The position numbers were made by a program, and so were the translations under genes. The notes beneath the pieces are model-generated. The model ran no database searches and was not told where the DNA came from. It saw only the letters and a list, made by a program, of their open reading frames with translations. From Minisyncoccota bacterium (GTDB taxonomy: Bacteria > Patescibacteriota > Minisyncoccia > Phycocordibacterales > UBA1006), in NCBI GenBank assembly GCA_028697455.1, contig JAQVEZ010000002.1, forward strand, positions 25,486 to 89,485: a stretch of 64,000 nucleotides of DNA. Reading direction: 5' to 3'. Of the stretch, positions 7,901-63,168 are shown one piece after another; the first letter of the stretch is position 1, and every line of letters starts with the position of its first letter.

Positions 7901-7989
7901 ATTCTTGACAAAAAATGGCTAAGATATTTAAGAGAATTTCATAAAAAAGCCCGTTGCAAAACGGGCTTTCATTTTTTGATTTTCACTTT

Positions 7990-9178: not shown

Positions 9179-9694
9179 ATGACAATCTCAATTATTGTAA
9201 GTATCCAAGTTTGCCCTGATTCTCCAAACCATTTTGGAATCGGAAAGGGTTTAGAACTCCTTCATGATCTTTCCGATGATAAAAAAAATTTCAAGGAAGT
9301 CACCAAGAACAAAGTAGTCATTATGGGAAGAAACACCTGGGAATCAATTCCTCGACAATTCAGACCACTTCCCAATCGAAAAAATGTTCTTATCTCCTCA
9401 ACGATACAACCAGAGGGTGTCGAGACATATCACGATCTTGATTCAGCTCTCAAAGCACTCGAAGACTCAGGTGAACACGAAGAGGTATTCATCATGGGAG
9501 GAAGCAGGCTTTATTTGGAAGCATTACCAAAAACTCAGCGTATCTATTTAACAATAGTCCGGGCTGATAAAGAAGCTGATATTTTCTTTCCAAAAACTGA
9601 CTTAAAGAAGGAATTCCCTACACTTCGCAAAAGAGTAAAACTCATTGACGAAAAAACAGGAATCCCATGGGAATATCTCATTATTGAGAGATAA
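9179..9694 (+). CDS. folA: Dihydrofolate reductase
   Basis: VIMGRNTWESIPRQFRPLPNRKNVLIS and FIMGGSRLY are classical DHFR motifs; 171 aa. Confidence 0.85.
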   Translation: MTISIIVSIQVCPDSPNHFGIGKGLELLHDLSDDKKNFKEVTKNKVVIMGRNTWESIPRQFRPLPNRKNVLISSTIQPEGVETYHDLDSALKALEDSGEHEEVFIMGGSRLYLEALPKTQRIYLTIVRADKEADIFFPKTDLKKEFPTLRKRVKLIDEKTGIPWEYLIIER

Positions 9695-9704
9695 TTTAAA
9701 AATG

Positions 9705-9741
9705 AGCGCCTAAATAAAGTTTAGGCGCTTTCTTTATTCAA
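9705..9741 (+). terminator. Rho-independent terminator after folA
   Basis: GAGCGCCTAAAtaaagTTTAGGCGCTTTCTTT. Confidence 0.6.
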
Positions 9742-9799
9742 AAATTGACAAAAAGAAATAAAAACTAATAATGAAATAAAATATAAAACTTTATAAACT

Positions 9800-10756
9800 A
9801 TGAGTTATCACATTGATAAAAACTATCATGGACTTCTCAAAGAAATCCTTGATCACGGCCTCTTTAGAAGCCCTGAAGAAGAACGAACAGGAACAGGAAC
9901 AAAAGGAATTTTTGGCTACCAATACCGGTGCCCTAATGTTTCTGAACAATTCCCCCTCATAACAACCAAAAAAGTTTATTTTAAATCGGTTGTTACTGAG
10001 CTCTTATGGAAAATTTCTGGCTCAACAAACATCAGACCCTTGGTGCTTGCTGAAAATCGCATTTGGAACGAATGGCCTTTTCAAAATTATTTGAAAAAAA
10101 CAAATCAGGAAAAAGACTTTCCAAAATATTCAGAGCAGTGGGAATTTGCTATGAAAATGTTTGTTGAAGATATTAAGTCATCAGAAGATTTTGCAAAAAA
10201 GTGGGGTGGTCTTGGCCCAACTTATGGACATCATTTCAGACATTTTTCTGGATACAACCCTGAAACGGACACCCTTGTAGAAGGCTTTGACCAACTTATT
10301 GACGCAATCAACACGATCAGAGATAACCCGGGTTCACGTCGTATCATCATCAGTCTTTGGAATGCAACGGAGAACCCTTACACGCTCTTGCCTCCATGTC
10401 CTTGTTTCTACCACTTTGCTGTACTTGGTGGAAAATTACATCTCCAGATGTATCAGCGAAGCTGTGATACTTTTCTTGGGGTACCCTTTAACACGGCACA
10501 AGATGCTTTATTTCTGTTGCTTGTTGCACAGGTATGTGGTCTCCCTGCAGGAGATTTTATTCACACCTTTGGAGATGCTCATATTTATTCAAATCATTTT
10601 GAACAAGTAAGATTGCAGCTATCCCGGGACTCCAGACCTATGCCTCGAGTAGAGTTGAATCCCAGTATTAAAAATATTGACGGATTCACCCCTGAGGATA
10701 TCAAACTTGTTGGGTATGATCCTCATCCTACTATTAAGGCACGGGTTGCGGTGTAA
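9800..10756 (+). CDS. thyA: Thymidylate synthase (ThyA type), with an internal insertion
   Basis: RRIIISLWN, LPPCPCFYHF (catalytic Cys in the LPPCH-like motif), MYQRSCDTFLGVPFN, DAHIYSNH; 318 aa. Confidence 0.9.
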   Translation: MSYHIDKNYHGLLKEILDHGLFRSPEEERTGTGTKGIFGYQYRCPNVSEQFPLITTKKVYFKSVVTELLWKISGSTNIRPLVLAENRIWNEWPFQNYLKKTNQEKDFPKYSEQWEFAMKMFVEDIKSSEDFAKKWGGLGPTYGHHFRHFSGYNPETDTLVEGFDQLIDAINTIRDNPGSRRIIISLWNATENPYTLLPPCPCFYHFAVLGGKLHLQMYQRSCDTFLGVPFNTAQDALFLLLVAQVCGLPAGDFIHTFGDAHIYSNHFEQVRLQLSRDSRPMPRVELNPSIKNIDGFTPEDIKLVGYDPHPTIKARVAV

Positions 10757-13007: not shown

Positions 13008-13808
13008 ATGAATAGCAAAAACAAAAAACTTATCGTCGCAAACTGGAAAATGAACGTTGTTTCTGAAAAAGACGCTGAAAATCTCTTCCTTTCCATAAAA
13101 AACGTCGTTCCAAAGCTTGATTATGTAAAAATGGTAACCTGCCCTCCTCATATGTATGTATCTCAGGTGGCTGCTCTTGTTGATCACCCTAACTATCGTG
13201 TTGGTGGGCAGGACGCCTACCCAGAGGAATCCGGGTCACGTACGGGAGAAACTTCTGTTCTTATGATGAAGAACGCTGGGGCAGAATACATTATTCTTGG
13301 GCATTCAGAACGACGACACCTCGAAACAAAACTTGATGTTGCTCGCAAAATAAGTGCTGTTCTCGAACATGAAATGACTCCTATTATTTGTATCGGAGAA
13401 GAGTCTCGTGATAAAACCTGGAAAAAACAACTCCAAAAACAACTCCAAGATGTTTTTACACGCGTTCCAAAAAAGAACCCAGAGAATATCATTATTGCCT
13501 ATGAACCTATTTGGGCAATTAGCTCAGATAAAAAATCTCCAGCAAGTGCTGCTGAATGTATGGAAGCGCTCGAGGTAATTAAAGCTGAGCTCCTCAAGAT
13601 ATTCAAAACAGCAAAAGCCGTCTCTGCAATACGATTTCTCTATGGAGGGTCTCTTGACGACAAAAATATTGAAGAGTTTCTCAAAGAAACTGACGTTGAC
13701 GGTTTCCTTATTGGAAGAGTATCTCTTGACCCACGAATTCTGATGACGATGTTTCGTTTGGTTGATGATCATGTGTATCAATCATCACTAAAAAAAGAAG
13801 AGGAATAA
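13008..13808 (+). CDS. tpiA: Triosephosphate isomerase
   Basis: LIVANWKMN, GHSERR, IAYEPIWAIS, YGGS. Start placed at ATG 13008, which has a TATAAT box 7 nt upstream. Confidence 0.85.
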   Translation: MNSKNKKLIVANWKMNVVSEKDAENLFLSIKNVVPKLDYVKMVTCPPHMYVSQVAALVDHPNYRVGGQDAYPEESGSRTGETSVLMMKNAGAEYIILGHSERRHLETKLDVARKISAVLEHEMTPIICIGEESRDKTWKKQLQKQLQDVFTRVPKKNPENIIIAYEPIWAISSDKKSPASAAECMEALEVIKAELLKIFKTAKAVSAIRFLYGGSLDDKNIEEFLKETDVDGFLIGRVSLDPRILMTMFRLVDDHVYQSSLKKEEE

Positions 13809-13847
13809 CTCTTCTTTTTTTATTTCTTCATATTGTATTATTCAAGC

Positions 13848-15155
13848 TTAACAAGATTGAGTTTGTGCTTGTGGTTTTGGTTGAGGACAAAGATTCTCAG
13901 GTACTTGATTTCCTTGGTTGTCTTTACAGATAGCCGTACGTGTTTGGCTTGCTCCAGTGACATTCCAGGTACAAAGATTGTTTGTGTAAAAAGGATCGGT
14001 ACAATCTTCTTCACTGTAATTATAATATGCACAAATGGTATCACTATAAAGAGGAACAGAACCAGTAACACTATTTACATACCCTGGAGTTGAAGGTCCT
14101 CCACCAGGGTTATCTGACCCTTGCCCAGGAGTAACACTAACTCTGTGCCAAACCCCATTATTGATAGAAGGTTCGTAATAAAGAGATCCCCAAAATCCTC
14201 CAATTTCTCGAATACAAGCTCCTGCCCCCATAGGGTTTAAGTCCATATTTGTCCCAACATTGACGTCTCTTCCGAGTGGTGTTTCCGGGGCACACTGATA
14301 AAAATTTTGAGCTTGAGTTGGGGTAGAATAAACCCTTCCATTAACCCATTCAAAAGGATTCCCTGCCCAATCAACCTTATAATGAGCCGATGGTCCTTGA
14401 CAGCTTCCTACACCACCAGTACAAGCTCCCCAAGGAGACCAGTCCCAATGATAGGTTGTTGTTACCTTATTTGCCCAACAGTTTGCGGTAGGACCTCCGA
14501 GTTGTCCAGTACAACTCCATTTGAAGAGGTTCCCTTCCGTGATAACTCCAGGCATTGATCCAGTAATAAGACAGAGTCCTTCTGTTGGTGGTTCAGCAAA
14601 GGTCTGTTGATGTGAAGGTCCACAGACTCCAGGAATAGGGGTTGGATCATCAGGAGGAGTTGTTGTTGAACAACGTTCAATTCTTCCAAAATCATTCACA
14701 CAGGCGGGGACATAAGGGTCAGCACTTGGATCAGCCAAACTATCAATACGGATATATCCGTCTACTCTCAAAGGTGCATCTGCAGGGGCTGACGATACCG
14801 ATCCAACCGTAAGACGATGGATAAGGGTGTCTTGATAGGCAACGATATTGTTAAAGAACGATGTTCCAAAAACACGGAAGGTAATATTTTTTGCAGTATT
14901 AAACCAACTCAAAGGAGTTGTTCCAAGAGATCCGTTTGAAAATTGCTTTGGTGCAAGCTGAAATGATGGAATCAAAAATGAACTTCCAAGAGAACCGTTT
15001 CCAAGTTTTGTAAGGAGTTGCCCCACAACTCCTGGTTCCTGAGTATCGTCTATTCCTCCACCAATAGTTCCTTGGGCAAGAACAGGAGAAACAAAAGAAG
15101 AAGAAAGAAGTGCAAAAGCAAACACAAAGGATGTTACAATAAGGTATTTTTTCAT
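13848..15155 (-). CDS. Secreted Cys-rich repeat protein (4-Cys modules plus thrombospondin-type-1-like WxxWxxW...C repeats)
   Basis: Signal peptide MKKYLIVTSFVFAFALLSSSFVSPVLA. Modules GVCGPSHQQTFAEPPTEGLCLITG...WSCTGQLGGPTANCWA, then YHWDWSPWGACTGGVGSC and TRTAICKDNQGN...LC. N-terminal domain homologous to that of 17559..19034 (ITFRVFGTS vs VTFRVLQNATFATS). Confidence 0.6.
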   Translation of the reverse strand: MKKYLIVTSFVFAFALLSSSFVSPVLAQGTIGGGIDDTQEPGVVGQLLTKLGNGSLGSSFLIPSFQLAPKQFSNGSLGTTPLSWFNTAKNITFRVFGTSFFNNIVAYQDTLIHRLTVGSVSSAPADAPLRVDGYIRIDSLADPSADPYVPACVNDFGRIERCSTTTPPDDPTPIPGVCGPSHQQTFAEPPTEGLCLITGSMPGVITEGNLFKWSCTGQLGGPTANCWANKVTTTYHWDWSPWGACTGGVGSCQGPSAHYKVDWAGNPFEWVNGRVYSTPTQAQNFYQCAPETPLGRDVNVGTNMDLNPMGAGACIREIGGFWGSLYYEPSINNGVWHRVSVTPGQGSDNPGGGPSTPGYVNSVTGSVPLYSDTICAYYNYSEEDCTDPFYTNNLCTWNVTGASQTRTAICKDNQGNQVPENLCPQPKPQAQTQSC

Positions 15156-15187
15156 AATAATATAATAGATTGACTCAATAATAACGA

Positions 15188-15829
15188 TTAACCTTGCTCA
15201 CTTCCTAACCCTCCTCCACCAGAACTTCGTGGACACAAAATAATTTTACCACTTTGGTCAGAGCACACTTTTCTTTGCCTCGTAGTATTTTGTGGGGCAT
15301 AGGTTATTCCCGACCACCATGCCAAAGAACTCAAGAGCATACTGTGAATACTTGATCCTACATCTCCTTTTATAATAAATGAACTGTCATAGGATTCAAA
15401 GCTTCCTCCTCCTGATCCACTACCCGTTCCTACCGTAACAAGTCCTCCTACTTGTGCAGGGGTTCGAACGACAAGTCGTGGAAAGACAGCAGAGCCGTTC
15501 ACATCAAGACATGATTGTGCTTGGGTTGCAAATTTTTCTGGAACACTTGGGTTAAAAATAAGACACCGATTAACAAGACTCTCTTCTCCCCCAAAAAGAG
15601 GGGCAATTCTCCAGTAGTTAGGACTTGAACTGTGTCCAATTGCCAAAGACCCGAGTCGACTAATAAAACTCCCTGGGGAGATAAAAGGAAGGGTATTTTG
15701 TATCTCTGGCGCGCTATTCCCAACAGGGTTTGAGAGCTGCGCTCTTGCAATCAGGGCTGAACCTCCAATGACTGCAATCCCAAGAACCACAGCAAAAGCA
15801 AAATAAGAAAAGTTAAAAGAATTTTTCAT
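15188..15829 (-). CDS. Secreted Gly/Ser-rich protein of the same tandem family
   Basis: Signal peptide MKNSFNFSYFAFAVVLGIAVIGGSALIARA; GSGSGGGS and SSGGGGLG low-complexity runs. Confidence 0.5.
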   Translation of the reverse strand: MKNSFNFSYFAFAVVLGIAVIGGSALIARAQLSNPVGNSAPEIQNTLPFISPGSFISRLGSLAIGHSSSPNYWRIAPLFGGEESLVNRCLIFNPSVPEKFATQAQSCLDVNGSAVFPRLVVRTPAQVGGLVTVGTGSGSGGGSFESYDSSFIIKGDVGSSIHSMLLSSLAWWSGITYAPQNTTRQRKVCSDQSGKIILCPRSSGGGGLGSEQG

Positions 15830-15966
15830 AGATATGATAATTGATCAACTATTAGAAATTAATAGTACCTTTAGTATATCATAGATAATTTGAGCAAGAC
15901 AAGTAAAAAAGCCTTCTACATATCGAGTATGTAAAAGGCTTTAAGTCACAAAGAAAGAAAGGCTTT

Positions 15967-17433
15967 TCATTTCTTAATGACTTTCTGGGTAAAAACTTTT
16001 TTCCCATCGTGGACCTTGAGGATATACACCCCAGCAGGAAGATTCTCCAAAGAAATTCTGTTCTCATAGAGAGCACCTCTTGAGACCCGTACTCCTGCGA
16101 GTGTATAGAGCTCAAAAGACTCGAGTCTCACATCACTTTCAAGATGCAACACGCTACTCGTTGGATTCGGATAGACGCGAACTGAGAGCTTGTTCTCTCC
16201 TTGATCGCTGGTTCCCATAATGAGGTTGCTGAAATAAATTTCAGCCTCAGCAAAGTCCGTTTGTGGATGTTTACCCATATAGAAAAGATCATCATCTCCG
16301 TCTCCGTCAAAATCAGCAGCAATGGCAGAACCAAAATAGAGCTGCTTAAGGAGCAATGCCTTATTAAGGGAGAAAGTCCCCCCATCATTCAAGAAAAGCC
16401 TCCCATCATCATCGTTGTTCGCCGAAGATGCATAGAATTCATCGTAGCCGTCCCCATCAAAATCATGGAGGAATATTGTGTCTGACGTCCAATTAAACTG
16501 CTGAGAGAGGCTAAAACTACCATCTCCGTTGTTAACATAGAACAAAGTTTGGTCTCCTTCATGACTCATGACAAAATCAGGAAGACTATCTCCGTTAATA
16601 TTTCCAGTAGCAAAAGACACAATTCCTGCTGGAGGGAAAGGAACAAATTGTCCACCCCCAGTACGAACAGGATTAATAACTTCTTCAAAATTCCCAGAGC
16701 CGTAATTAAGGAACAATCGTGTAGGTCCTTGTCCTCCATAAAAAATGTCAGGATAACCATTACCGTCAATATCAGCAAAAGCTATGCCAAGACCAGTTTC
16801 ACCATCAAGATCAGGGAGGTTTGATGTTACTTCAGTAAAAGTTCCGTCGCCATTATTACGGAGAAACTTGATTTTTGTCTTTCCTCGGTCATATTTATCA
16901 ACCCAACGAAAAACAATATCCTTGTCTCCATCCCCGTCAAAATCTATAGCAAAACATGAAGTATAAAACGGTGTCCAAGAGATAATAATTTCTACTTCAA
17001 TAAAGGTTCCGTCTCCATTTCCAAGATACAGAAAACTCTTAAAGTTTTCGGGGTTTTGATTATAGGATTCAAAAACTCCTGAAATAAAAACATCTTCGTG
17101 ACCATCATTATTGAAATCATCAACAACAGGTTCACCCCCAGCAAGGTGCTGAAAGGGTGTACTAGCTGTCCAGGTTCGGTCTCCATTATTAATATGGAGA
17201 TGACTTTCGATTACCAAGGTAAAGGGTATCGGCGTCATTACTTGTTTAATTGCCCCGATCGTTACGATATCCAGGAGCCCATCTTCATCAAAGTCTCCAA
17301 CAGCTGGCTTTCCAGCAAATTTACCCTGGATGCCATGATTTAGTCCACGAGTGAACGAAAGCTCACCCGAATGTTGCTGCGCTCCGAGGTAGCATCCCGC
17401 TACCAGCATGAGCAAGAAAATAAAGTTTTTCAT
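15967..17433 (-). CDS. FG-GAP/VCBS-repeat beta-propeller protein with a T9SS-type C-terminal sorting domain
   Basis: Signal peptide. Repeated Ca-binding-like motifs DFDEDGLLDIV, DFNNDGHEDVF, DFDGDGDKDIV, DIDGNGYPDIF, DFDGDGYDEF, DFDGDGDDDLF. C-terminus VYPNPTSSVLHLES...FELYTLAGVRV...LPAGVYILKV...TQKVIKK matches the Por secretion C-terminal domain consensus. Confidence 0.65.
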   Translation of the reverse strand: MKNFIFLLMLVAGCYLGAQQHSGELSFTRGLNHGIQGKFAGKPAVGDFDEDGLLDIVTIGAIKQVMTPIPFTLVIESHLHINNGDRTWTASTPFQHLAGGEPVVDDFNNDGHEDVFISGVFESYNQNPENFKSFLYLGNGDGTFIEVEIIISWTPFYTSCFAIDFDGDGDKDIVFRWVDKYDRGKTKIKFLRNNGDGTFTEVTSNLPDLDGETGLGIAFADIDGNGYPDIFYGGQGPTRLFLNYGSGNFEEVINPVRTGGGQFVPFPPAGIVSFATGNINGDSLPDFVMSHEGDQTLFYVNNGDGSFSLSQQFNWTSDTIFLHDFDGDGYDEFYASSANNDDDGRLFLNDGGTFSLNKALLLKQLYFGSAIAADFDGDGDDDLFYMGKHPQTDFAEAEIYFSNLIMGTSDQGENKLSVRVYPNPTSSVLHLESDVRLESFELYTLAGVRVSRGALYENRISLENLPAGVYILKVHDGKKVFTQKVIKK

Positions 17434-17558
17434 TTTTAATTATTAATATTTTGACTTTAGTATACTACATAAACAATATAAATCAAGGAGTTATCAACAA
17501 GTAAAAACTCACCCTTTTGGGTGAGTTTTTGGCAAAATAAGAGTATTAAAGAAGTGCG

Positions 17559-19034
17559 TTAATAGGAACCTCCTCGTCCATGAATAATCGTTGAGAGAAA
17601 TGGGTTTCCAAGAGCATTGTAGAGGGTAAGACTTGCTGAAGAATCTCCATCTCCATTACCTGCTTCTGATTCAGTTCCTCCACAAGCCTGAATCTCAACG
17701 GTTGCTTTTCCTGTGGCATCAAGTTTGAAGGTTCCGGTATTTTGTTGGTACCTTGGTATCCCAAGACTTGCACCACCGACATGTCGTATAAAGGTGTATC
17801 CTGAAGCAGCATGTCCTGGATTTGAAAGTGCCATGTAATGAATCGTCTGATTGGGAGCTCCTGAGATAACATATCGCTCGAGCCAACCTGCATCCTGAGG
17901 AGGTTCAACAAATGACAATTCACACCATGATACCCATCCTCCGCTAAAGGTTGGATTACATCCTTCAGTTGTTGTTTGAGGGGCTGGTTTTGGTCCGACG
18001 TTAACAATACATACCTGATCATCATGAGTGTTTCCGTTGCTGTCTTTACAGATAGCATTTCGAGTCTTGATGCCATCAACACACTGTCCATAAGGACCCC
18101 AGTCCCAATAGTACCCTACCTGTTCTTTTGGAGCTAAACAGTTAGCAACATCTCCTGTTGCTGAGGTACAAGACCAGGTAAAGGAAGAAGATCCTTCGTT
18201 CACCGCTGAAGCAGTTCCTACTGAACACAAACCGGTCGTTGGTGCTGTTTGGGTTGGAACGCCATTGGCTGGACCACAGACTGCCATTTCAGGAACGACT
18301 CGTGGTGTTGTACAGAGCTGATTTGATCCTCCATTCTGTCCAAAACAAGTCCAACTATATGAGCTTGCTCCAATCATAATTCCCGAAGCAATACCACTGG
18401 TACAAAGATTTCCTGTTGGAGGGTTATTATAAGGGCCTCCGTTAACAATGGCTGCATTACACACCCCATTAACAGGTTGTGCTGTTGGGCAAGGAACAAG
18501 TGTTCCGTCTCGTGTGATACATACTTCTTGAGGGGTAGCTTTGTTATGAGAAAGAGGCACTGAAAGAGCTGTCCCCCATACATTTACCCTCTGAAGATAT
18601 TGAGCTGGGGTTTTTCCTGCGTAGTTTTGTTTCCAGATAGCAAGCCCTGGCCCAATAGCATCGGTGTTGGTTCCTCCAAGGAAGAGACTTGTTGCAAATG
18701 TTGCATTCTGAAGAACACGGAAGGTAACCTTTTCTTTATAATTACTATTTGTCCAACTATTATCAAAGAGACTCACGTCACTACTTTGAGATCCTCGAGT
18801 ATCGAGTTGTGCACCCGAAAGAATAGCACACAAGGCATTAGGACACCCGATACGGAGGTTATCAATGACCTGATCTCCTCCTCCTTTATGAATCAAAGGA
18901 GCAAGGGCGCTTGGTCCTGCTGGTGGAGGAGTTGCTCCTTCGGCAAGAGCAAACCAAGAAACAAGAACAAGAAGAGCCAGAACAACAAGAGGAAAATTTA
19001 TTTTTTGCTTAAAGAATTTTTTCATAGTATTCAT
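17559..19034 (-). CDS. Secreted Cys-rich repeat protein (paralog of 13848..15155)
   Basis: Signal peptide. Modules GVCNAAIVNGGPYNNPPTGNLCTSG...YSWTCFGQNGGSNQLC and AVCGPANGVPTQTAPTTGLCSVG...FTWSCTSATGDVANC, then YYWDWGPYGQCVDGIKTRNAICKDSNGN...VC (TSP1-like). Confidence 0.6.
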   Translation of the reverse strand: MNTMKKFFKQKINFPLVVLALLVLVSWFALAEGATPPPAGPSALAPLIHKGGGDQVIDNLRIGCPNALCAILSGAQLDTRGSQSSDVSLFDNSWTNSNYKEKVTFRVLQNATFATSLFLGGTNTDAIGPGLAIWKQNYAGKTPAQYLQRVNVWGTALSVPLSHNKATPQEVCITRDGTLVPCPTAQPVNGVCNAAIVNGGPYNNPPTGNLCTSGIASGIMIGASSYSWTCFGQNGGSNQLCTTPRVVPEMAVCGPANGVPTQTAPTTGLCSVGTASAVNEGSSSFTWSCTSATGDVANCLAPKEQVGYYWDWGPYGQCVDGIKTRNAICKDSNGNTHDDQVCIVNVGPKPAPQTTTEGCNPTFSGGWVSWCELSFVEPPQDAGWLERYVISGAPNQTIHYMALSNPGHAASGYTFIRHVGGASLGIPRYQQNTGTFKLDATGKATVEIQACGGTESEAGNGDGDSSASLTLYNALGNPFLSTIIHGRGGSY

Positions 19035-19042
19035 TATATTAA

Positions 19043-19996
19043 CTATACCTCTCGATAATCAGGAATGACTAGTCCTGATCCAGGACCTCCAGGTCCACCA
19101 GGATCTCCTGGATCATTTGGGTCGACAACCTCTCCACACCACGCATATGCTGATCCGATAATAACAGCACCAGAATCATTTCCAATACATCTGATGGTGA
19201 AGGTTACAGGAGTGTTTTGGTTGGTAATAGCCCCAGAAGCGAGCTCTCCCGAAGTATTTTGAGTTGCTCGAGCACCAGGGCTTACCCAAAGTCCAATTCC
19301 AGTCTGACAATCTGAAACATTTTCAGAAGTCCATCTGATCGTTGGTCGTGGAATACTACACTCTTCTTGATAAAGAACGTTTGCGTTATTGAGAGTAATA
19401 TCAACATGTTCATTACAATCACTTTGCGCGATAACAACGTCAGAAAAATCAAGATATTTTGCCCCAACAACATCTTCGTAATAATCAGTTCCCCCTACAA
19501 TGGAGAAATTATAGTTTTTTCCAAGCCCGACAAAAGCTCCTGGGTCTGATTGATAGGTAACGCCAGAAAGATCAACTTGATATGGCATATTCCCCCATGC
19601 TGCGGGATTTGCTTTTGGAGATTCAAACTCAGCTCTTTTTTGGGCCATAAGGTTTTGGTTAGTATATCCAAAATCAACCCATCCAAGATAGGGGCTCCAC
19701 GCTCTTCCTCCAAAAAGACCTGTTTGCCGGTTATAGCTTGTGTAGAAGCTTATATTGGTTGTCCCTTGTCCAGAAAGATCGTTCCATGACTGAGTACTCA
19801 TATAGATAGGTCCTGCAAAGGTAGTCATAACAACACCATACAAGTTTCCTGGTCCGTCTTCAGAACAAGCATTTCCTCCTCCAATAGTTGATTGCGCTTT
19901 GACTTCAGGAGAAAAAGCAAGTTCTGAAAAGAGAAAAGCTCCCGCAAGAACAAAAAGGAAAGAAATTTTATAAGTAGATAAAAGAATTTTTTTCAT
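19043..19996 (-). CDS. Secreted protein of the same family, with a Gly/Pro-rich C-terminus
   Basis: Signal peptide, then AQSTIGGG (compare AQGTIGGG in 13848..15155); C-terminus DPNDPGDPGGPGGPGSG. Confidence 0.55.
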   Translation of the reverse strand: MKKILLSTYKISFLFVLAGAFLFSELAFSPEVKAQSTIGGGNACSEDGPGNLYGVVMTTFAGPIYMSTQSWNDLSGQGTTNISFYTSYNRQTGLFGGRAWSPYLGWVDFGYTNQNLMAQKRAEFESPKANPAAWGNMPYQVDLSGVTYQSDPGAFVGLGKNYNFSIVGGTDYYEDVVGAKYLDFSDVVIAQSDCNEHVDITLNNANVLYQEECSIPRPTIRWTSENVSDCQTGIGLWVSPGARATQNTSGELASGAITNQNTPVTFTIRCIGNDSGAVIIGSAYAWCGEVVDPNDPGDPGGPGGPGSGLVIPDYREV

Positions 19997-20011
19997 AAGA
20001 ATAAAATAAAT

Positions 20012-20308
20012 TTAAATGGATGATCGTAGCATATCCTCGATTGTTTTTTCTCGATGCTCGTCAGTGAAAGGGGTTTGCCCTTGTACGGTTGATTCTAGGA
20101 TATTTAGTTGCTCTTCTTCAGGAAGAACTCCATCGTAGGGAGAAGAAGGTCCAAACTTATAATAAAGAAAAACAGCAAACGCTATGAGTACAAGGATACC
20201 CAACAAAACAAAAATATTTTTGTTTGTGTCGTGGTTTTCCTTTGGCGAAACAGTTTGTTTTTTTGTTTCTTCTGGAAAAATACGATCGTCTCGTAAAGGA
20301 TCTTTCAT
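20012..20308 (-). CDS. Small single-pass membrane protein, hypothetical
   Basis: 98 aa; TM segment IFVLLGILVLIAFAVFLYY. Confidence 0.4.
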   Translation of the reverse strand: MKDPLRDDRIFPEETKKQTVSPKENHDTNKNIFVLLGILVLIAFAVFLYYKFGPSSPYDGVLPEEEQLNILESTVQGQTPFTDEHREKTIEDMLRSSI

Positions 20309-35979: not shown

Positions 35980-36112
35980 AACAGAGTGTATCTTAGCACA
36001 GATTGTTGTTTTTGCAAATTAAAAAGGCTTCGACCAAGACTTTTTCTCCCATCCTTAAAATCCTTCTCATTTTTTATTATTTTGCGACGCTTAAATCTGT
36101 TATACTTGGCTT

Positions 36113-37033
36113 ATGGAAATACAGCGTGCTCTTAAACAATTCTTGGAATATCTTGAAATAGAAAAAGGACGAAGTCTCAAAACCGTTCGTAATTACAAAC
36201 ATTACATAAATCGTTTTATCATTTTTGGAAATCTCAAACACACCAAAGACATTAATGCTGAAACCGTTCGTTCCTTCCGACTCTATCTTAATCGACAACC
36301 AGGACAAAAATCTCAAGGACAAAGCTCAGGGACAATGAAAAAAAGGACACAGAACTACCACCTTATTGCTCTTCGTGTTTTCTTAAAATATCTTATGAAA
36401 CAAGGAATTTCGGTATATAGTCCTGATCATATTGAGCTTGCAAAAACAGGAGATCGCCACGTTGACCACCTTGAAAGTCATGAACTTTCTCGTCTTTTTG
36501 ATGCCGCAGAAAAACACCCACGAAATTACGCATTACTTCATATGCTCTTTTCTACAGGACTTCGTCTTTCTGAGCTTTGTTCTCTCAACCGAGATATTGA
36601 CCTTAATCAAGATGAACTGAGTATTAGAGGAAAAGGAGAAAAAATTCGTATTGTCTTTTTGAGTAAAGAAACAAAAGATGCTGTGCGCAAATATCTTAGC
36701 TCAAGGACTGATATCGATGAAGCGCTCTTTATTCAAGAAGGGCCTTCTCGTGTGAAACGAGAAGAAAATAATGAATCACTCAGATTAAGCCCTCGCTCTG
36801 TGGAACGTATAGTGAAACAAATGGCTCTTGAAGCAGGGATTTCAAAAAGAGTTACTCCTCATACCATTCGGCACTCCTTTGCCACTGATTTACTGAGAAA
36901 CGGCGCTGACATTAGAAGTGTCCAAATGATGCTAGGGCACAGCAATATTGCAACAACACAAATCTATACGCATATCACCGACAAGCAACTACGTGATATT
37001 CACAAAAAGTTTCACAACAAAAACAACGAGTGA
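36113..37033 (+). CDS. Tyrosine site-specific recombinase, XerC/XerD-like
   Basis: C-terminal catalytic block HTIRHSFATDLLRNGADIRSVQMMLGHSNIATTQIYTHI (R..H..R..Y); N-terminal SAM-like core-binding domain. Confidence 0.8.
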   Translation: MEIQRALKQFLEYLEIEKGRSLKTVRNYKHYINRFIIFGNLKHTKDINAETVRSFRLYLNRQPGQKSQGQSSGTMKKRTQNYHLIALRVFLKYLMKQGISVYSPDHIELAKTGDRHVDHLESHELSRLFDAAEKHPRNYALLHMLFSTGLRLSELCSLNRDIDLNQDELSIRGKGEKIRIVFLSKETKDAVRKYLSSRTDIDEALFIQEGPSRVKREENNESLRLSPRSVERIVKQMALEAGISKRVTPHTIRHSFATDLLRNGADIRSVQMMLGHSNIATTQIYTHITDKQLRDIHKKFHNKNNE

Positions 37034-49781: not shown

Positions 49782-49884
49782 AAAAGGTAAATAATACTTC
49801 TTAGTATAGAAAAATAGAAACTTTTTTCAAGAGATGCTCTTTATTAATGACATATTTTAAGGGATCATGTTATACTTTAAGCGT

Positions 49885-52869
49885 ATGAAAAAATTTTTTA
49901 TCTTATTTATTTTTGTTTTTTCTTTGAGTTTATTCACCCCACAGAAAACCGAAGCCCTTTTTGATGTTGGGAGCTTAATACTCGTTGCAAAAGAATACGG
50001 AATGGATACCCTCACGACTATTATCAACTCACGTATTATGGATAAACTCGTGAGTGATACGGTTAACTGGGCAAATGGTGGTTTTGACGGAGAGCCTGGC
50101 TTCATCAACAACTGGGAAGATTATCTCAAGGGGACTGAACAAGATGTCTTTATTGGAGCTTTTAGTGTTGCCGAAAAAGCCACAAGCTCTTATATACAAA
50201 ACTTCTGTAACCTTGATTGTTCCGGAAACAGCCCTGAAAATATCCAAGCTGATTATGAAGAATGTCTTGCTGGTGGTGCCCCCGTTGAAACCTGTGATGC
50301 GTATGCTAACGCAGCAAGTGCTGATTACCAGCAATGCATGGCAAATCTCGAGCAAGGAGCGGGTACTTGTCAAATGCTTGATATCGGTGCGCAGGCGCAA
50401 AGTAATTATAACGCATGGAATTCGGGAGAACTTGATTCCTATCGGCTTGCTGCAGAGAGTATTGCCCTCATCGGAGGGCAGCGATTCAACTCCGACCCAC
50501 TCAAAGCGCTTATTGAAGGACAGGGTGAAACCCTTACTAAACTCCTTGGTTCAAAATCTGAAGTAGAGAATTTTAAAAATGACTTCTCTGTTGGGGGAAT
50601 ACGGGGGTGGATTGCTCTAGCTGACCCACACAACTTTCCACTCGGACAATCAACACTTATTGAATCTGCCCTAAGTCAAAAAACAGGAGAGAAGGTTCAA
50701 AATGTTGTAGAAGATTTGCAAACACCAAATAAATTCCTCGACAGAAAATGGTGTCTCGAACGAGATGATGACAACAACTGTACAAAAGAATTTACGGGGA
50801 CTCCAGGAGCTCTTATTGAATCAAAAATAAAATCAACAGCTGATTCTGACAGCGATCGTCTTAATGTTGCCCGAGAACTTTCCGACGTTCTGGCTCGAGC
50901 GCTTGGAAAACTCACCGATGGCTTACTCCAAGCAGGCTTCAATAAGCTTACTCAATCGGGAAGTTCTGGTGCGAGTGCACAACCCTTCCAACCAGCTCAA
51001 TTTTTTACAACAGGATATCAAAATGAATTCGATATTCTTGGTTTAGGAGATCTTTCTCCTTCTGGAAGCCTTCTTGGGGGAGGAACCGGTGGGGGGAATA
51101 CTCAAACACCGATCTTTGATCCCGAGACGGGAACCTTTACACCTCTTCGTGGAGGTGATGGATCTCTTCCTTATATTGGAGGACCCGAAGATGCAGTAAA
51201 TACAAGCTGGAACGAAGGTCCTGAGATTATTATTGATCTTCAGAGTGTTCTCGAAAACTCAATTAATCTTATCCAAGAAGAGCTCACGCTCCTCACAGAG
51301 ACTGAAAAAATCCTCAGAGATGGAAAAGATAATGTGATGAAACTTGATCGTTGTATCCCTGGTCCAAAATTTGGGTGGGAAGACAGGCTTCGAGATAATC
51401 TAAATCTTACTGGAGATAGTAACGACGAAGAATCTGCTTATGACCGACTTGGGCTCCAAGAAACTCGTCGTATGGCAAATGACAATATGGTGAATATCCC
51501 TGGGGCAAGTCAAATGAGAGGAACCGTAAATGCTCTCCTCTCTCAAAATGGGGAAAATCAATTTGAAGAAGTTTCGAATGAACGAAACCGAAAACAAACC
51601 TATCTTGCAATTCTTAAAAACATGAAATCTTCAATCCAACAAGATTTTAATAACTATAAAGGAGCTATTGATTCACATCTTGTTATCTTTGAAGAGGACT
51701 GGAATAAACTCTCTGATACCGAGAAAATCGCGCTCTTCTCTATCCCCGAACGAGATGAGAATGGTGATATCATTTATGTTCCCGTTGAGGTAGGGAGCTC
51801 GGGAACTATTGTCGTTAATGAAAACCAAGAACGTCCTCTCTATATTATGGAGAAATACTATCTCTTTAAACCAGGAGAAACTCCAGCATCTGTTTTTGCA
51901 AATAATCCTGATGCCGTCAAAAAAGCCGTCTTGAGTTATTCATGGGATCTCTGGCAAAGAAAGAAGGGGGAAGAGCCAGCAAGTGGAACAACCCCAAATG
52001 GAGTAACCCAAAAATCAAACCTTCGCTATCAATATTATGCCATGTCAAAATATCTCACCACAGAGTCTGATATCCTTGATGCAGAAATGAAAAAAGATGA
52101 AGTGACTCAGAGCAATAAAACCATTATTGATCTTCTTCATGACTGTATGCAGCTAAAATTATATGCACTTGGATATTCTGATGGGAATGGTGAAAATACA
52201 GAAATGTGGAAACGCCTAGACCAGACCTTGTCCCAGGAACCTTCACGATCTCTTGGAATGCTTATTGGAGGAATGAGTGTTGAGAGGGCTGATCATGGAA
52301 GTACTGCTTACCAACTCAATGTGGACAATGCTCGTACCGATCAGCAAATAAAAAATTATCTGCTCCAAGAAAAAGCCAAACAAGAAAACAACCAACCAAG
52401 TAATTTTAAGACTTCAATAATTACTAATGGTGTTGAAGAAAGTATTCTTGGTTTTGAAGAAACAACTATTAGCTGGGAGGAAGTAGCTCATTACGGACCA
52501 CCAGGGCACAACCCCTACGGATCTCCTGATGGTGACGGAAATATAACCTTGAGTCCGAGCCAAACAAGAAAAAAATACTTTGATGATTTTTATGAAAAAG
52601 ATGAAGATCTCTGGCAACCCTATTATAAATATTCAAATGGTATTGCAGAGATAGACCCAGAAAGAGCTGTTGCAAGACTCTATCAGTTCGATTATATGAC
52701 AATGGGATGGCCACGAGGGGGAAATGGGAAAGGAACACTCTATTGTAGAGTAGTGACCTCATTCGATGCACGGGGATGGCATGGAGCTCAAAATCTCCCA
52801 AAATGCTACAAAGATTGGTACAGTACGTCAAATATTACCTATGACCTTGCGTTGATGAATATTCGATAA
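49885..52869 (+). CDS. Large secreted Cys-containing protein, hypothetical; first gene of the surface/T4SS-like gene block
   Basis: Signal peptide MKKFFILFIFVFSLSLFTPQKTEA; start at ATG 49885 with a TATACT box 8 nt upstream; about 995 aa; followed by terminator AAGCCttcgGGCTTTTTT. Confidence 0.55.
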   Translation: MKKFFILFIFVFSLSLFTPQKTEALFDVGSLILVAKEYGMDTLTTIINSRIMDKLVSDTVNWANGGFDGEPGFINNWEDYLKGTEQDVFIGAFSVAEKATSSYIQNFCNLDCSGNSPENIQADYEECLAGGAPVETCDAYANAASADYQQCMANLEQGAGTCQMLDIGAQAQSNYNAWNSGELDSYRLAAESIALIGGQRFNSDPLKALIEGQGETLTKLLGSKSEVENFKNDFSVGGIRGWIALADPHNFPLGQSTLIESALSQKTGEKVQNVVEDLQTPNKFLDRKWCLERDDDNNCTKEFTGTPGALIESKIKSTADSDSDRLNVARELSDVLARALGKLTDGLLQAGFNKLTQSGSSGASAQPFQPAQFFTTGYQNEFDILGLGDLSPSGSLLGGGTGGGNTQTPIFDPETGTFTPLRGGDGSLPYIGGPEDAVNTSWNEGPEIIIDLQSVLENSINLIQEELTLLTETEKILRDGKDNVMKLDRCIPGPKFGWEDRLRDNLNLTGDSNDEESAYDRLGLQETRRMANDNMVNIPGASQMRGTVNALLSQNGENQFEEVSNERNRKQTYLAILKNMKSSIQQDFNNYKGAIDSHLVIFEEDWNKLSDTEKIALFSIPERDENGDIIYVPVEVGSSGTIVVNENQERPLYIMEKYYLFKPGETPASVFANNPDAVKKAVLSYSWDLWQRKKGEEPASGTTPNGVTQKSNLRYQYYAMSKYLTTESDILDAEMKKDEVTQSNKTIIDLLHDCMQLKLYALGYSDGNGENTEMWKRLDQTLSQEPSRSLGMLIGGMSVERADHGSTAYQLNVDNARTDQQIKNYLLQEKAKQENNQPSNFKTSIITNGVEESILGFEETTISWEEVAHYGPPGHNPYGSPDGDGNITLSPSQTRKKYFDDFYEKDEDLWQPYYKYSNGIAEIDPERAVARLYQFDYMTMGWPRGGNGKGTLYCRVVTSFDARGWHGAQNLPKCYKDWYSTSNITYDLALMNIR

Positions 52870-52930
52870 AAGCCTTCGGGCTTTTTTCTTTTACAGAAAA
52901 GAAAAATACGATATGATTAAAGGTAGTTAT

Positions 52931-55357: not shown

Positions 55358-55408
55358 AAAACCTTCGCGGTTTTTTATTTTTAAAAAATTGCTATACTAA
55401 AACAAGTT

Positions 55409-56260
55409 ATGGAATACGACCGATCAGAAATCGAAAAAATCATTTCCGAACTTCCCAATCATATCCGACAGGCCGTTGATGCTATTGACTGGGGAGAGAT
55501 CACCAAAGAAATGCAAGAAAAGTTCAAACTCCATCTTGATGATATTGCTGCCTTTCGTGAACAATCAATGCTTGTCATTGTGGGAAAGCTTTCTTCAGAC
55601 AGATATGCAGATGCCCTTATCTATGAAATTGGTCTAAGCAAAGAGTTCGCTCATGAACTTGTTGATTTTGCAGACAAAAGAATCTTTCAGAAATTACAAA
55701 ACAATGCCTTCGGGAGAAACCAAGAACCAGAAGAAAAAATCCCTGCGTATACCTCACAATCAACAAACGATCCTTATTCAATTATTGATATCAATGATCA
55801 AAATGAGGGGAAAAATATGCCGAGCTTTTCTCCTTCTTTTAATGCAAACCTCAAAAAAGACTTAGCTGATCAGCTTTCTTCATGGCAAGTGCAAAGTGGA
55901 AAAGAAGATATTCTTAGCTCTAATAGCGGTACCGCAGGCTCATTCAAACTTGCTCCAAGGGAAAAACCTGCTGACCCAAATGCCTATCGAGAACCTATCG
56001 AAGAATCTGACCTTCGTGGAATTCCTTCTATGGACTCCCTTGAACGGTCTTCTCTCGGTCAGGCATTACAACAGCCTGAGCAGATTTTTTCATCCCCTCT
56101 TGAAGCCCAGGAAAAACGTGAAGATGTTCCAAACCTTGAAGAAGATTTACTTTCTCAAGCCTTCATTCCTAAAAATGATATCTTAAACCTTGATGATGAA
56201 AACGATATCCTTTCAGAAGAAAATGAGGGAAGTCACCTTAAAAACCTAAAGAATATATAA
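55409..56260 (+). CDS. Acidic hypothetical protein
   Basis: 283 aa, strongly acidic C-terminal half; TATACT box immediately upstream. Confidence 0.4.
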   Translation: MEYDRSEIEKIISELPNHIRQAVDAIDWGEITKEMQEKFKLHLDDIAAFREQSMLVIVGKLSSDRYADALIYEIGLSKEFAHELVDFADKRIFQKLQNNAFGRNQEPEEKIPAYTSQSTNDPYSIIDINDQNEGKNMPSFSPSFNANLKKDLADQLSSWQVQSGKEDILSSNSGTAGSFKLAPREKPADPNAYREPIEESDLRGIPSMDSLERSSLGQALQQPEQIFSSPLEAQEKREDVPNLEEDLLSQAFIPKNDILNLDDENDILSEENEGSHLKNLKNI

Positions 56261-56268
56261 TTACCCTT

Positions 56269-56691
56269 ATGAGATTCGAAGTTCCACAATTTATTAATGT
56301 TCAAGATAAACTTTTTGGACCTTTTACCTTCCAAGAAGCTCTTTATCTTGTCGGTGGAGGAGGACTTGTCTTTGTTCTTTATAAACTCCTTCCTTTTTCT
56401 TTTGCGATATTTTTTGGTGTTCCTGTTATTGCTTTTACGCTAGCGCTCATCTTTTATAAACCAAATGGGAGACCGTTTATCAATCTTGTTGAGGCTTTTA
56501 TTCTCTATTCTTTTAGTAAAAAATTCTACCTTTGGAGACAAAAAGAAAAAGGAGAAGGTCAGATACAGGAAATCACTCAAGTACATGCTCCCGTCCTCCG
56601 TGAGGGAGAAATTCCTGAAGAAGAGGTTCACCAAAAGATATCAAACCTTGCTTGGAGTCTCGATGTGCTTGATTTTGATGAAAATAAATAG
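56269..56691 (+). CDS. PrgI/VirB3-like small two-TM membrane protein
   Basis: 140 aa; N-terminal MRFEVPQFINVQDKLFGPFTFQEALYLVGGGGLVFVLYKLLP and a second TM segment IFFGVPVIAFTLALIFY. The architecture matches the PrgI family found directly upstream of VirB4 in Gram-positive T4SS. Confidence 0.45.
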   Translation: MRFEVPQFINVQDKLFGPFTFQEALYLVGGGGLVFVLYKLLPFSFAIFFGVPVIAFTLALIFYKPNGRPFINLVEAFILYSFSKKFYLWRQKEKGEGQIQEITQVHAPVLREGEIPEEEVHQKISNLAWSLDVLDFDENK

Positions 56692-56727
56692 ATATTCCTC
56701 AAAAGATAGGATATACTTTATATAATT

Positions 56728-57390: not shown

Positions 57391-57449
57391 ACTCGTCTTT
57401 GAGTTTTTTTGATTATGAGCAATTCCAAAAATACCTTATAATAACAAAG

Positions 57450-58493: not shown

Positions 58494-58540
58494 GAACAAA
58501 ATCTCAAAAAACCAAATACTTTTGGTTTTTTATTCACCAA

Positions 58541-60788: not shown

Positions 60789-60838
60789 TCTTGGTTTTTT
60801 TATTTTAAAGAATATCGTATACTAGAAATATTACTACT

Positions 60839-63102: not shown

Positions 63103-63168
63103 TCTCTATTTCGTCATTAAAGAAAATACTTTTTTATTCCCAAAAATATCGTATACTAAAAACATCAT

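Follow-up and report, generated by a model that had tools for sequence, protein, structure and literature searches.

A Paceibacteria propeller protein with a type IX secretion tail, probably native and probably passed to a Flavobacteriales species

C-terminal sorting domains (CTDs) of the type IX secretion system (T9SS) are overwhelmingly a feature of Bacteroidota and the FCB group, and CPR bacteria are not known to have an outer membrane or a T9SS. The gene described here raises the question of how such a domain comes to stand at the end of a protein encoded in a genome that does not look like Bacteroidota, where the gene came from, and what its tail could do there. It lies on the minus strand at 15967..17433 of the 64 kb stretch of DNA analysed (the window), and the open reading frame, with its ATG start and with Pfam and NCBIfam matches, encodes a protein of 488 aa in which an FG-GAP propeller is followed by a T9SS type A CTD, in the position given by a preliminary description made from the sequence alone. 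The identical protein is present at NCBI as MDD3693994.1 (also our P0367), annotated as 'T9SS type A sorting domain-containing protein [Candidatus Paceibacterota bacterium]'.

The tail was taken in the preliminary description for a T9SS CTD, with a TIGR04183 search proposed as the check, and both profile and fold bear this out. The domain occupies residues 420-488 (15970..16176, minus strand), where the NCBIfam profile TIGR04183 matches over its whole length (1-72 of 72) with 46.9 bits (cutoff 23; E 2e-12), and Por_Secre_tail (PF18962) matches residues 420-486 at 36.7 bits (gathering threshold 27). In a full-length AlphaFold2 model (pLDDT 84.5) residues 418-487 form a seven-stranded beta-sandwich that follows a disordered linker at 406-413, and a model of the tail alone (pLDDT 90.3) also has seven strands. 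The best PDB matches of this tail model in Foldseek are T9SS substrate CTDs (8glk_D, 8qb1 and 8glj_D); for 8glk_D and 8glj_D the TM-scores are 0.74-0.75 by query length and 0.82-0.83 by target length, with rmsd of 1.7-1.9 Å (0.74, 0.82 and 1.9 Å for 8glk_D), and the CTDs of mirolase, PorZ and RgpB come next; 5m11 and 5ag8 are also among the top hits. Profile, extreme C-terminal location and fold all place the domain among the T9SS type A CTDs.

The resemblance to T9SS type A cargo of Bacteroidota, such as Flavobacterium johnsoniae NucA and FspA, Porphyromonas gingivalis RgpB and Tannerella mirolase, extends to the combination of an N-terminal Sec signal peptide with a C-terminal seven-stranded beta-sandwich and to the YPNP, G-x-Y and K-x-x-x-K motifs of the tail, and the tail as modelled superposes on the CTDs solved in the Flavobacterium T9SS translocon. 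The pairing of FG-GAP repeats with a CTD is itself a common architecture in Bacteroidota. Unlike Bacteroidota cargo, however, this protein is encoded by what is probably a native gene of a CPR genome, and T9SS genes are absent from the window: Pfam searches of its approximately 50 genes found neither a T9SS nor an outer-membrane component, and the full T9SS that the preliminary description had suggested looking for in the genome was not found within these 64 kb. A custom CTD profile picks out just one open reading frame in the window with such a tail, and in the flanks of the corresponding gene arrays of relatives (about 20 kb) no called gene belongs to a Pfam family suggesting a T9SS or outer-membrane component.

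The remainder of the protein is a signal peptide and a propeller. Residues 1-20 (MKNFIFLLMLVAGCYLGAQQ; 17374..17433, minus strand) have the n, h and c regions of a signal peptide by inspection, with a likely signal peptidase I cut after GA, and form a helix at residues 2-16 in the AlphaFold2 model, where pLDDT is low; the tailed proteins of other CPR lineages begin with signal peptides of similar style. Residues 25-404 (16222..17361, minus strand) are modelled as an all-beta propeller, match FG-GAP_3 (PF13517) at 138.5 bits over seven stretches and FG-GAP at 52.9 bits, and carry seven D-x-[DN]-x-D-[GS] motifs of the DxDxDG calcium-loop type whose Asp columns are invariant, so that both the seven calcium-loop repeats and the fold identify a seven-bladed FG-GAP/VCBS propeller. 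The closest folds in Foldseek are CRTAC1 (9etn, E 1e-12), followed by the fungal lectins PVL (2bwr) and AAL (4tqm) and integrin alpha headpieces (E 1e-10 to 1e-9). Integrin alpha, CRTAC1 and PVL/AAL propellers are adhesion or ligand-binding modules, and the likeness to the integrin alpha headpiece, to CRTAC1/ASPIC and to the PVL/AAL GlcNAc lectins lies in the seven FG-GAP blades and the DxDxDG calcium loops; the sequence identity to these proteins is only ~10-21%, and the thigh and calf domains and the beta-subunit partner of integrin alpha are absent. The protein does not belong to the CRTAC1/ASPIC-UnbV family, as Pfam finds no UnbV/ASPIC domain (PF07593) in it and the Por tail stands at its C-terminus instead. 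Many weaker database matches do contain PF07593. Taken together, the sequence and models predict an integrin-alpha-like FG-GAP propeller that is exported by Sec, binds calcium and ends in a genuine T9SS type A CTD.

The genome that encodes it is that of a CPR/Paceibacteria organism. It is not that of a member of the Bacteroidota, which the preliminary description had also judged it not to resemble. NusA shares 77-80% identity with proteins of Patescibacteria, Paceibacteria and Minisyncoccia MAGs, and UvrD about 50% with those of Paceibacterota and Nomurabacteria MAGs, and together with these two markers the CPR-typical gene content, which includes T4SS_pilin (PF18895) and PrgI genes and many secreted proteins without a family match, places the window in Patescibacteria (Paceibacteria). 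Rfam and tRNA scans of the window yielded three tRNAs and no rRNA, and ribosomal proteins are absent from it. The promoters are sigma70-like with TATACT boxes, as had been noted at the outset: 19 of the 42 TATACT sites fall within the 12% of the window that is non-coding (p = 1.3e-7), and nearly all of these are 9-50 nt upstream of a start on the same strand. TATACT is the -10 box of this CPR genome.

The gene stands, as first described, in the middle of a series of genes for secreted or surface proteins that lies downstream of nusA (13848..20308, minus strand). The members of this array, delimited by open reading frames and synteny, encode proteins of 98 aa, 317 aa and 491 aa, the FG-GAP/Por-tail protein, and proteins of 213 aa and 435 aa; none of the array neighbours of the tailed gene has a Pfam match. 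The gene has a CPR-type promoter of its own, TTGATT-N16-TATACT (17459..17486, minus strand), found by consensus scan, and a terminator scan locates its intrinsic terminator hairpin at 15908..15942 (minus strand). Immediately beyond, at 15873..15902 (minus strand), is a second CPR-type promoter, TTGTCT-N18-TG-n-TATACT, which serves the next gene of the array (213 aa).

The gene also occurs elsewhere. It is 82-84% identical to a chromosomal gene of a Moheibacter-like member of the Weeksellaceae, in a synteny conserved over many samples, and blastn and junction alignments show that the two loci have in common a segment of 1.6 kb (15863..17451, minus strand; 79-83% nucleotide identity) that begins 18 nt before the ATG and extends about 104 nt beyond the stop codon. 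The gene's terminator and the promoter of the next array gene are thus within the shared segment, and its own promoter is in CPR-specific DNA just outside. The terminator hairpin is kept in the Weeksellaceae copies with compensatory differences. By blastn the window and the Weeksellaceae loci have no other DNA in common, and their ComM proteins are at an ordinary 42.5% identity. The partner is identified by its GuaA, which is 98% identical to that of a 'Moheibacter sp.' MAG, 91% to that of a 'Weeksellaceae bacterium' and 79% to that of Weeksella virosa. Among Weeksellaceae the gene is found only in this species, whose GuaA proteins are 97-99% identical. Its site, in the interval between guaA and ybaK, adjoins toxin-antitoxin genes and, in locus L095, a Bro-N gene; the toxin-antitoxin region is variable, and some strains have frameshifted copies. 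A search of 5.8 billion proteins returned no ortholog at 50-79% identity, although Weeksellaceae relatives with GuaA at 79-91% are numerous. The nearest non-allelic homologs are P0006 (42%) and P0007 (34%), of which P0006 is in a Bacteroidota-like contig where it is compositionally foreign, with a GC3 of 0.30 against 0.44 in its neighbours. Proteins with Por tails of their own are also present at the Weeksellaceae loci.

Several alleles are common to the two populations. The Weeksellaceae alleles are old and mosaic, being 57-88% identical within flanks that are 98-100% identical, with dS of ~0.6-1.0 across the whole gene, a depth of diversity that was sampled mainly from Weeksellaceae (three CPR strains were seen). 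The CPR alleles of the window and of L088 are identical at gene positions 278-1467, and at positions 78-277 they differ, each matching a different Weeksellaceae allele. The gene is under purifying selection, with dN/dS of 0.10-0.21 in all allele pairs. A gene-specific sweep among the CPR strains, suggested by a block of 100% identity over the gene between the window and L001/L088, was considered and rejected, since the window and the L001 and L088 loci are mosaics of 100% and 76-93% blocks.

Codon usage and promoters, among other evidence, bear on the direction in which the segment moved. First, a codon-usage score separates 36 CPR genes (+0.042 to +0.218, mean +0.143 ± 0.040) from 20 Weeksellaceae genes (-0.285 to -0.026; neighbours of the gene, mean -0.155 ± 0.075) with no overlap, and the codon-usage comparison proposed in the preliminary description finds the window gene (+0.091) to be a typical CPR gene. 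Every allele falls between +0.088 and +0.105, the Weeksellaceae-resident ones among them, which places these 3.4 SD from their neighbours, and the share of CTT and CTC among leucine codons, 0.74 in CPR genes and 0.25 in Weeksellaceae genes, is 0.68-0.75 in the Weeksellaceae-resident alleles. The first third of the gene scores near neutral, and GC3 (0.33-0.36; 0.354 in the window copy) lies between the CPR mean of 0.293 ± 0.032 and the Weeksellaceae mean of 0.393. Overall GC content was discarded as an indicator of transfer, the gene being at 0.42, the window at 0.386 and the Weeksellaceae loci at 0.386-0.399.

Secondly, the shared segment ends at its 3′ side with the CPR-type promoter noted above, 49 nt before the next CPR gene, where it is properly placed. 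In Weeksellaceae the same element points toward a gene that runs convergently, and those loci have essentially no other TTG-N18-21-TATACT; its chance occurrence is about 7e-4 per 100 nt. This argument rests on the position of TATACT relative to genes and on the full -35/-10 arrangement; a 17-fold difference in TATACTA between CPR and Weeksellaceae was set aside as a measure of enrichment, as about 20 per 64 kb are expected and the CPR count is near chance. Because the alleles resident in Weeksellaceae have CPR codons and carry a CPR promoter that is useless to them, the recent transfer was most likely from CPR to Weeksellaceae. The Weeksellaceae copies have the atypical, donor-like composition and the accompanying donor-type promoter of an acquired gene; the window copy is typical of CPR in composition, and the gene is not patchy among close CPR relatives.

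Tailed genes are a regular feature of these relatives. Each of the five lineages of the CPR clade that we examined has an FG-GAP and Por-tail gene in the array between nusA and tpiA, and the array is syntenic in L001, L088, L100, L182/183, L185/186 and L188, always with a tailed member. These proteins vary in length and in content, with 475 or 491 aa in L100, 481 aa in L182, 637 aa with TSP3 repeats in L185/186, and 1137 aa with a lipase-like domain in L188. Between lineages they are only 25-30% identical, and their tails match the full TIGR04183 profile at 47-50 bits in L088, L100, L182 and L185, and PF18962 at 40.1 bits in L188. At their own loci the genes are native in composition (z -1.6 to +0.2) and are preceded by sigma70-type promoters, and the L100 protein has no close Bacteroidota counterpart in JGI metagenomes, the best being at 30-37% identity. 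Since the tail keeps full profile scores while the propellers diverge to 25% identity, it is not what would be expected of a passenger. The tailed genes of the CPR lineages may descend from one ancestral gene or may result from independent gains with compositional amelioration; the tail domain itself may have an ancient Bacteroidota origin.

We therefore favour a reading, with a probability of roughly 0.55, in which the gene is a native CPR surface adhesin gene whose 1.6 kb segment has been donated, probably repeatedly, to a Flavobacteriales species that is the probable host. On the CPR side the gene would be a long-resident member of a fast-evolving surface-protein array next to nusA in one Paceibacteria clade. 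The passage of the shared segment from the CPR population to the Weeksellaceae species, probably several times or with allele swapping afterwards, has good support. Repeated exchange implies intimate and sustained contact, and the Flavobacteriales species is thus a probable host or partner of the CPR organism. We know the hosts of almost no Paceibacteria or Parcubacteria, and for this uncultured lineage the exchange points concretely to the Moheibacter-like Weeksellaceae species as the predicted host.

Movement in the opposite direction, with the gene recently acquired by the CPR organism from a Weeksellaceae host or neighbour and the tail a functionless passenger, was the explanation offered first, and we consider it unlikely. 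It gains from the prevalence of T9SS CTDs in Bacteroidota and FCB genomes, from the 82-84% identity to a Weeksellaceae chromosomal gene whose synteny holds in many samples, from the allelic depth sampled on the Weeksellaceae side, from the location of the nearest other homologs in non-CPR contigs and from a GC3 above the CPR average, and Bacteroidota appear as donors to Patescibacteria in published surveys (PMC12455944). However, the Weeksellaceae-resident alleles are the ones that depart from their surroundings in codon usage and that hold a promoter of use in CPR, the gene is limited in Weeksellaceae to one species, where it adjoins a variable toxin-antitoxin region and is frameshifted in some strains, P0006 is foreign in its own genome, and in the CPR clade the tailed FG-GAP gene is conserved, native-looking and intact in its tail profile. 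The horizontal link to Bacteroidota raised in the preliminary description therefore stands, and the acquisition from a Bacteroidota host or neighbour does not, given the CPR-like codon scores, the donor signals and promoter on the Weeksellaceae side, and the native tailed genes of the clade.

How would such a protein work? On the reading we favour, the CPR cell might export it through Sec and display it as an adhesin directed toward a T9SS-bearing partner, and the tail, presumably with no cognate machine in the cell, might be selected for binding T9SS surface parts of the partner (of the PorV or PorU type) or for acting as a stalk. For the Weeksellaceae species that received the gene, the tail could turn the protein into ready-made T9SS cargo. 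A bolder proposal is that the Paceibacteria clade deliberately tags surface or effector proteins with the secretion tag of its Bacteroidota host, and that the host captures alleles. Once the protein had left the CPR cell, or had been delivered into the host periplasm, its tail would be recognised by the host PorV shuttle and PorU/PorZ complex, so that the propeller, or the lipase-like enzyme of L188, would be planted on or act at the host envelope; alleles captured by the host could perhaps be decoys that block attachment. This would explain an old, mosaic allele pool common to two phyla, and we consider it unlikely. A loose analogy is offered by Tir and intimin of EPEC: a parasite protein that bears the sorting signal of its partner might be put on display by the machinery of that partner. 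The analogy is one of hypothesis and not of membership. A T9SS signal kept where no T9SS is expected challenges the view that the tag works only with a machine in the same cell, and an epibiont that addresses proteins to its host's secretion or attachment system is a testable idea.

We know of few documented cases of gene passage from CPR to a free-living bacterium. Our search of the literature on T9SS tails or FG-GAP proteins in CPR, on Flavobacteria as hosts of Paceibacteria or Campbellbacteria, and on Moheibacter with Patescibacteria found nothing specific. Surveys such as that of groundwater MAGs by MetaCHIP (PMC12455944) report the two phyla as frequent exchange partners, and in published cases Bacteroidota are mostly the donor, with an average divergence of 24%. 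The present case resembles published host-symbiont exchange in being an inter-phylum transfer between Paceibacteria and Bacteroidota, and departs from it in that the donor is probably the CPR organism, in that the junctions can be placed to the exact nucleotide, in that the two populations have several mosaic alleles in common, and in that the cargo is a surface protein with the recipient's own secretion tag.

Less likely still is a third party, such as a phage, a mobile element or an unsampled low-GC organism, that gave the segment to both. The Weeksellaceae site is beside toxin-antitoxin genes, with the Bro-N gene in L095, in L182 a Y1 transposase comes after the tailed gene, and unsampled alleles exist: in the CPR core region P0368 matches at 99% and P0369 at 92%, the latter being 87% identical overall. 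In the window, however, no mobile-element genes are inside or beside the segment, it begins with a CPR 5′ leader and finishes with a CPR promoter properly placed for the neighbouring CPR gene, its codon score fits the CPR genome at hand, and the architecture is syntenic across the CPR clade. That chimeric assembly or mis-binning has placed the gene in the CPR or the Weeksellaceae contigs is very improbable, for although binning errors are known in the lineage and the Logan contigs of CPR strains are mosaics of 100% and ~80% blocks, the CPR junctions are seen in three or more assemblies made from different runs (L001, SRR30309652; L088, SRR28106885; and a 155.7 kb NCBI contig), the Weeksellaceae junctions recur in more than 10 runs and one NCBI MAG, the two versions are ~18% apart in nucleotides and so cannot be the same reads, and the gene has its own CPR promoter and terminator. 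When a protein of a CPR MAG is annotated as 'T9SS type A sorting domain-containing protein', this is a sign neither of contamination nor of a T9SS. As to other labels in the lineage, relatives within the clade are named 'Campbellbacteria', and one syntenic CPR contig carries the NCBI label 'Crocinitomicaceae bacterium', a binning error.

The FG-GAP gene (15967–17433, − strand) encodes a protein of 488 amino acids that is covered by two well-known families, the FG-GAP propellers and the T9SS type A C-terminal domain (CTD) proteins, and the NCBI name, 'T9SS type A sorting domain-containing protein', already matches the T9SS part of this assignment. Pfam reports seven stretches of FG-GAP_3 (138.5 bits) and a Por_Secre_tail (36.7 bits, gathering threshold 27), and residues 420–488 match TIGR04183 over the full profile (46.9 bits, cutoff 23), so that the Por/T9SS sorting domain claimed in the preliminary description passes the search proposed there to check it. 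An AlphaFold2 model (33 homologs, pLDDT 84.5) has a signal-peptide helix, an all-beta propeller at 25–404, a disordered linker and a seven-strand sandwich; the propeller matches CRTAC1, fungal PVL/AAL lectins and integrin alpha headpieces. Modelled separately (pLDDT 90.3), the tail has its best PDB matches in 8glk_D and 8glj_D, substrate CTDs from Flavobacterium johnsoniae T9SS translocon structures (TM-scores 0.74–0.75 by query length and 0.82–0.83 by target length, rmsd 1.7–1.9 Å), followed by the CTDs of mirolase, PorZ and RgpB. Behind a Sec-type signal peptide the protein has a propeller of adhesion/lectin type with calcium loops, and its T9SS tail is intact; scanning the 64 kb window with a CTD profile derived from the homologs reveals no other tailed ORF. 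A CPR promoter (17486–17459, −) and a terminator (15942–15908, −) bracket the gene, which is, as judged from sequence, under purifying selection.

The organism is a CPR bacterium. Chromosomal housekeeping genes surround the tailed gene (nusA, ksgA, uvrD, glyA, tpiA, thyA, folA, tmk, argS, clpP and tig); NusA shares 77–80% identity with proteins of Patescibacteria, Paceibacteria and Minisyncoccia MAGs, and UvrD about 50% with Paceibacterota and Nomurabacteria but 43–46% with Bacillota. An identical protein on a 155.7 kb contig (MDD3693994.1) is labelled Candidatus Paceibacterota bacterium, and one marine clade member Candidatus Campbellbacteria. The window has a PrgI/T4SS-pilin cluster, which is typical CPR content, and none of its ~50 genes encodes a T9SS or outer-membrane component. 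NusA, UvrD, gene content and the MDD3693994.1 label thus all bear out the earlier view that the genome is not that of a Bacteroidota. The T4SS-like cluster (49867–63076, +) includes PrgI (56269–56691), two large proteins without a family match (1000 and 814 aa), and two paralogs of ~740 aa that both contain a T4SS_pilin domain, fused to SLT in the first case and to NlpC/P60 in the second; its promoters (…AAAATATCGTATACTAGAAATATT) are near-identical at 58548 and 60818, with a similar one at 63152. Elsewhere, an XerC/D-type tyrosine recombinase (36113–37033, +; Phage_integrase 145.8 bits) adjoins a methyltransferase gene and an exonuclease-endonuclease-phosphatase family gene.

Three CPR strains carrying the gene were sampled, the junctions being identical in the two further strain backgrounds, L001 and L088 (the latter with a NusA 95% identical), which come from other samples. 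A tailed FG-GAP gene is also present in the nusA-to-tpiA array of all the more distant clade members for which the region around nusA was retrieved: L100 (NusA 77%, 475/491 aa), L182 (76%, 481 aa), the TARA marine contigs L185/L186 (78%, 637 aa with TSP3 repeats) and L188 (72%, 1137 aa, 13015–16428, with FG-GAP_2, a PGAP1/DUF676 lipase-like domain and Big_7), the last with an additional, weakly tailed protein. The tails of L088, L100, L182 and L185 match TIGR04183 at 47–50 bits over the full profile and that of L188 matches PF18962 at 40.1 bits, although the propellers share only 25–30% mutual identity across the CPR lineages. These genes match their own neighbours in composition (z −1.6 to +0.2) and have TTGACA-N17-TGnTAnnAT promoters upstream; the tail is absent at ~30 more distant Paceibacteria uvrD loci. 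In L188 the tail tags a putative alpha/beta-hydrolase (lipase-like) enzyme, and it is therefore not limited to adhesins. The L182 contig (JGI Ga0535664_0003145, NCBI MFT7328290.1), with a Y1 transposase downstream of its tailed gene, is fully syntenic with the CPR clade, and NCBI has it in a MAG with the label Crocinitomicaceae (Flavobacteriales); mis-binning is probable, and the placement could reflect coupled abundance of a CPR bacterium and a Flavobacteriales host.

Among 5.8 billion proteins searched, homologs come in tiers, with alleles at 79–84% identity, then a gap, then P0006 at 42%, P0007 at 34%, and hundreds of FG-GAP proteins at ~30%. The alleles have a conserved setting unlike that in the CPR strains, with guaA and ParE/PIN toxin-antitoxin genes on one side of the gene and, on the other, a convergent ybaK-like gene followed by monofunctional transglycosylase, comM, cdd and PDH E1/E2 genes. 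This setting repeats in over ten sequencing runs and in a 'Flavobacteriia' MAG at NCBI. GuaA of these contigs is 98% identical to that of a Moheibacter sp. MAG, the figure being 91% for 'Weeksellaceae bacterium' and 79% for Weeksella virosa, and other Por-tailed proteins are encoded on them. Similarity to the window is limited to 15863–17451, from 18 nt 5′ of the ATG to ~104 nt past the stop, and no further DNA is common to the two outside this segment. Within the Weeksellaceae the gene occurs in one species only, adjoining a variable toxin-antitoxin/Bro-N region. In L089 (10001–11477), L090 and L091 a frameshift splits it into ORFs of 294 and 215 aa; the split gene is seen in five Weeksellaceae contigs from at least three runs, indicating that part of the recipient population can do without the captured gene or is losing it.

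Two independent lines, codon usage and a carried promoter, point to recent transfer from CPR to Weeksellaceae. First, by a codon score (log-likelihood on relative synonymous codon frequencies, leave-one-out) 36 window genes (+0.143 ± 0.040) and 20 Weeksellaceae genes (−0.155 ± 0.075) form two groups without overlap, and the alleles all score +0.088 to +0.105, including L002, L003 and L095, which reside on Weeksellaceae chromosomes. Leu CTT+CTC usage is 0.74 in CPR genes and 0.68–0.75 in the Weeksellaceae-resident alleles, whose neighbours have 0.25. Secondly, 19 of the 42 TATACT sites in the window fall within the 12% of non-coding DNA (p = 1.3e-7), nearly all of them 9–50 nt upstream of same-strand starts, and by this distribution TATACT is the −10 box of the CPR genome. 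At its 3′ end, past the terminator hairpin, the shared segment carries a TTGTCT-N18-TGnTATACT promoter, from which the next CPR gene is 49 nt away; it is kept in the Weeksellaceae copies, where it points at the end of the convergent gene and is essentially the sole such arrangement in those loci. The restriction to one species, the variable neighbourhood, the frameshifts and a foreign P0006 also count as support, and as a caveat the GC3 of the gene is intermediate and its first third scores near zero on codon usage. P0006 (L092:10001–11554), a 42% FG-GAP/Por-tail homolog, has a GC3 of 0.30 compared with 0.44 for its neighbours in a Bacteroidota-like contig and a codon score that falls 4 SD beyond the range of these neighbours, and is possibly another capture from a low-GC donor. 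Of the acquisition from Bacteroidota proposed earlier, the horizontal link stands and the direction is most likely the opposite; the alleles score on the CPR side, and the gene does not look foreign to the window genome by codon usage. The tail domain itself is possibly of ancient Bacteroidota origin.

The four Weeksellaceae loci are 98–100% identical in both flanks but only 57–88% in the gene interior, with dS ~0.6–1.0 gene-wide and dN/dS 0.10–0.18. The window and L088 alleles are identical over gene positions 278–1467 and 79–82% identical over 78–277, where the window resembles L003 (91–93%) and L088 resembles L095/L089 (88–91%). Two further alleles agree with the CPR hypervariable core at 99% (P0368) and 92% (P0369) and differ at their ends. 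This mosaic indicates more than one exchange between the CPR and Weeksellaceae populations, and from the time that both held the gene, either of them could have been the donor.

We predict that the protein would be exported across the single CPR membrane as a surface adhesin, one of an array of fast-evolving secreted proteins. Tails at full profile strength on propellers diverged beyond recognition suggest selection on the tail itself and, as no T9SS is known from CPR bacteria, the most economical idea is that it works on the partner's side, where it would engage e.g. components of PorV/PorU type in a Bacteroidota host; it may instead be a mere stalk domain. In a Weeksellaceae recipient the protein would at once be a legitimate T9SS cargo, a possible reason for the capture of this gene in particular, and the T4SS-like cluster is a conceivable, putative DNA route. 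In the literature searched we found no description of T9SS-tailed proteins conserved as native genes of a CPR clade, of transfer with CPR-to-Bacteroidota polarity, of a multi-allele pool common to the two phyla, or of the resulting host prediction, a Moheibacter-like Weeksellaceae species.

Several other features of these genomes were observed. The −10 box of the genome, TATACT(A[A/G]A), preceded by a CTTG/TTG element ~17–18 nt upstream, recurs in intergenic regions throughout the window (e.g. at 36101, 41482, 41530, 48048, 55393, 58548 and 60818), and many boxes lie just 9–21 nt before the start codon, suggesting leaderless or very short-leader mRNAs with little Shine-Dalgarno use. The array neighbours at 13848–15155 (−, 435 aa) and 17559–19034 (−, 491 aa) have no Pfam match and contain repeated Cys/Trp modules (GVCG...P..GLC..G...W.C.G..GG....C, then YxWDW[SG]P[WY]G.C) that in sequence resemble thrombospondin type 1 repeats; a homologous array protein of L185 has a weak PF19030 TSP1_ADAMTS match. 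Against L001 and L088, window positions 7937–31705 alternate between 100% blocks (up to ~8 kb) and 76–93% blocks, which indicates either that homologous recombination is frequent in the CPR population or that the assemblies mix strains. The window (9179–10756, +) and L088 have folA (DHFR) and thyA between vanY and tmk, where L001 has thyX (PF02511; 16649–18016), a strain-level swap of non-homologous thymidylate synthase systems.
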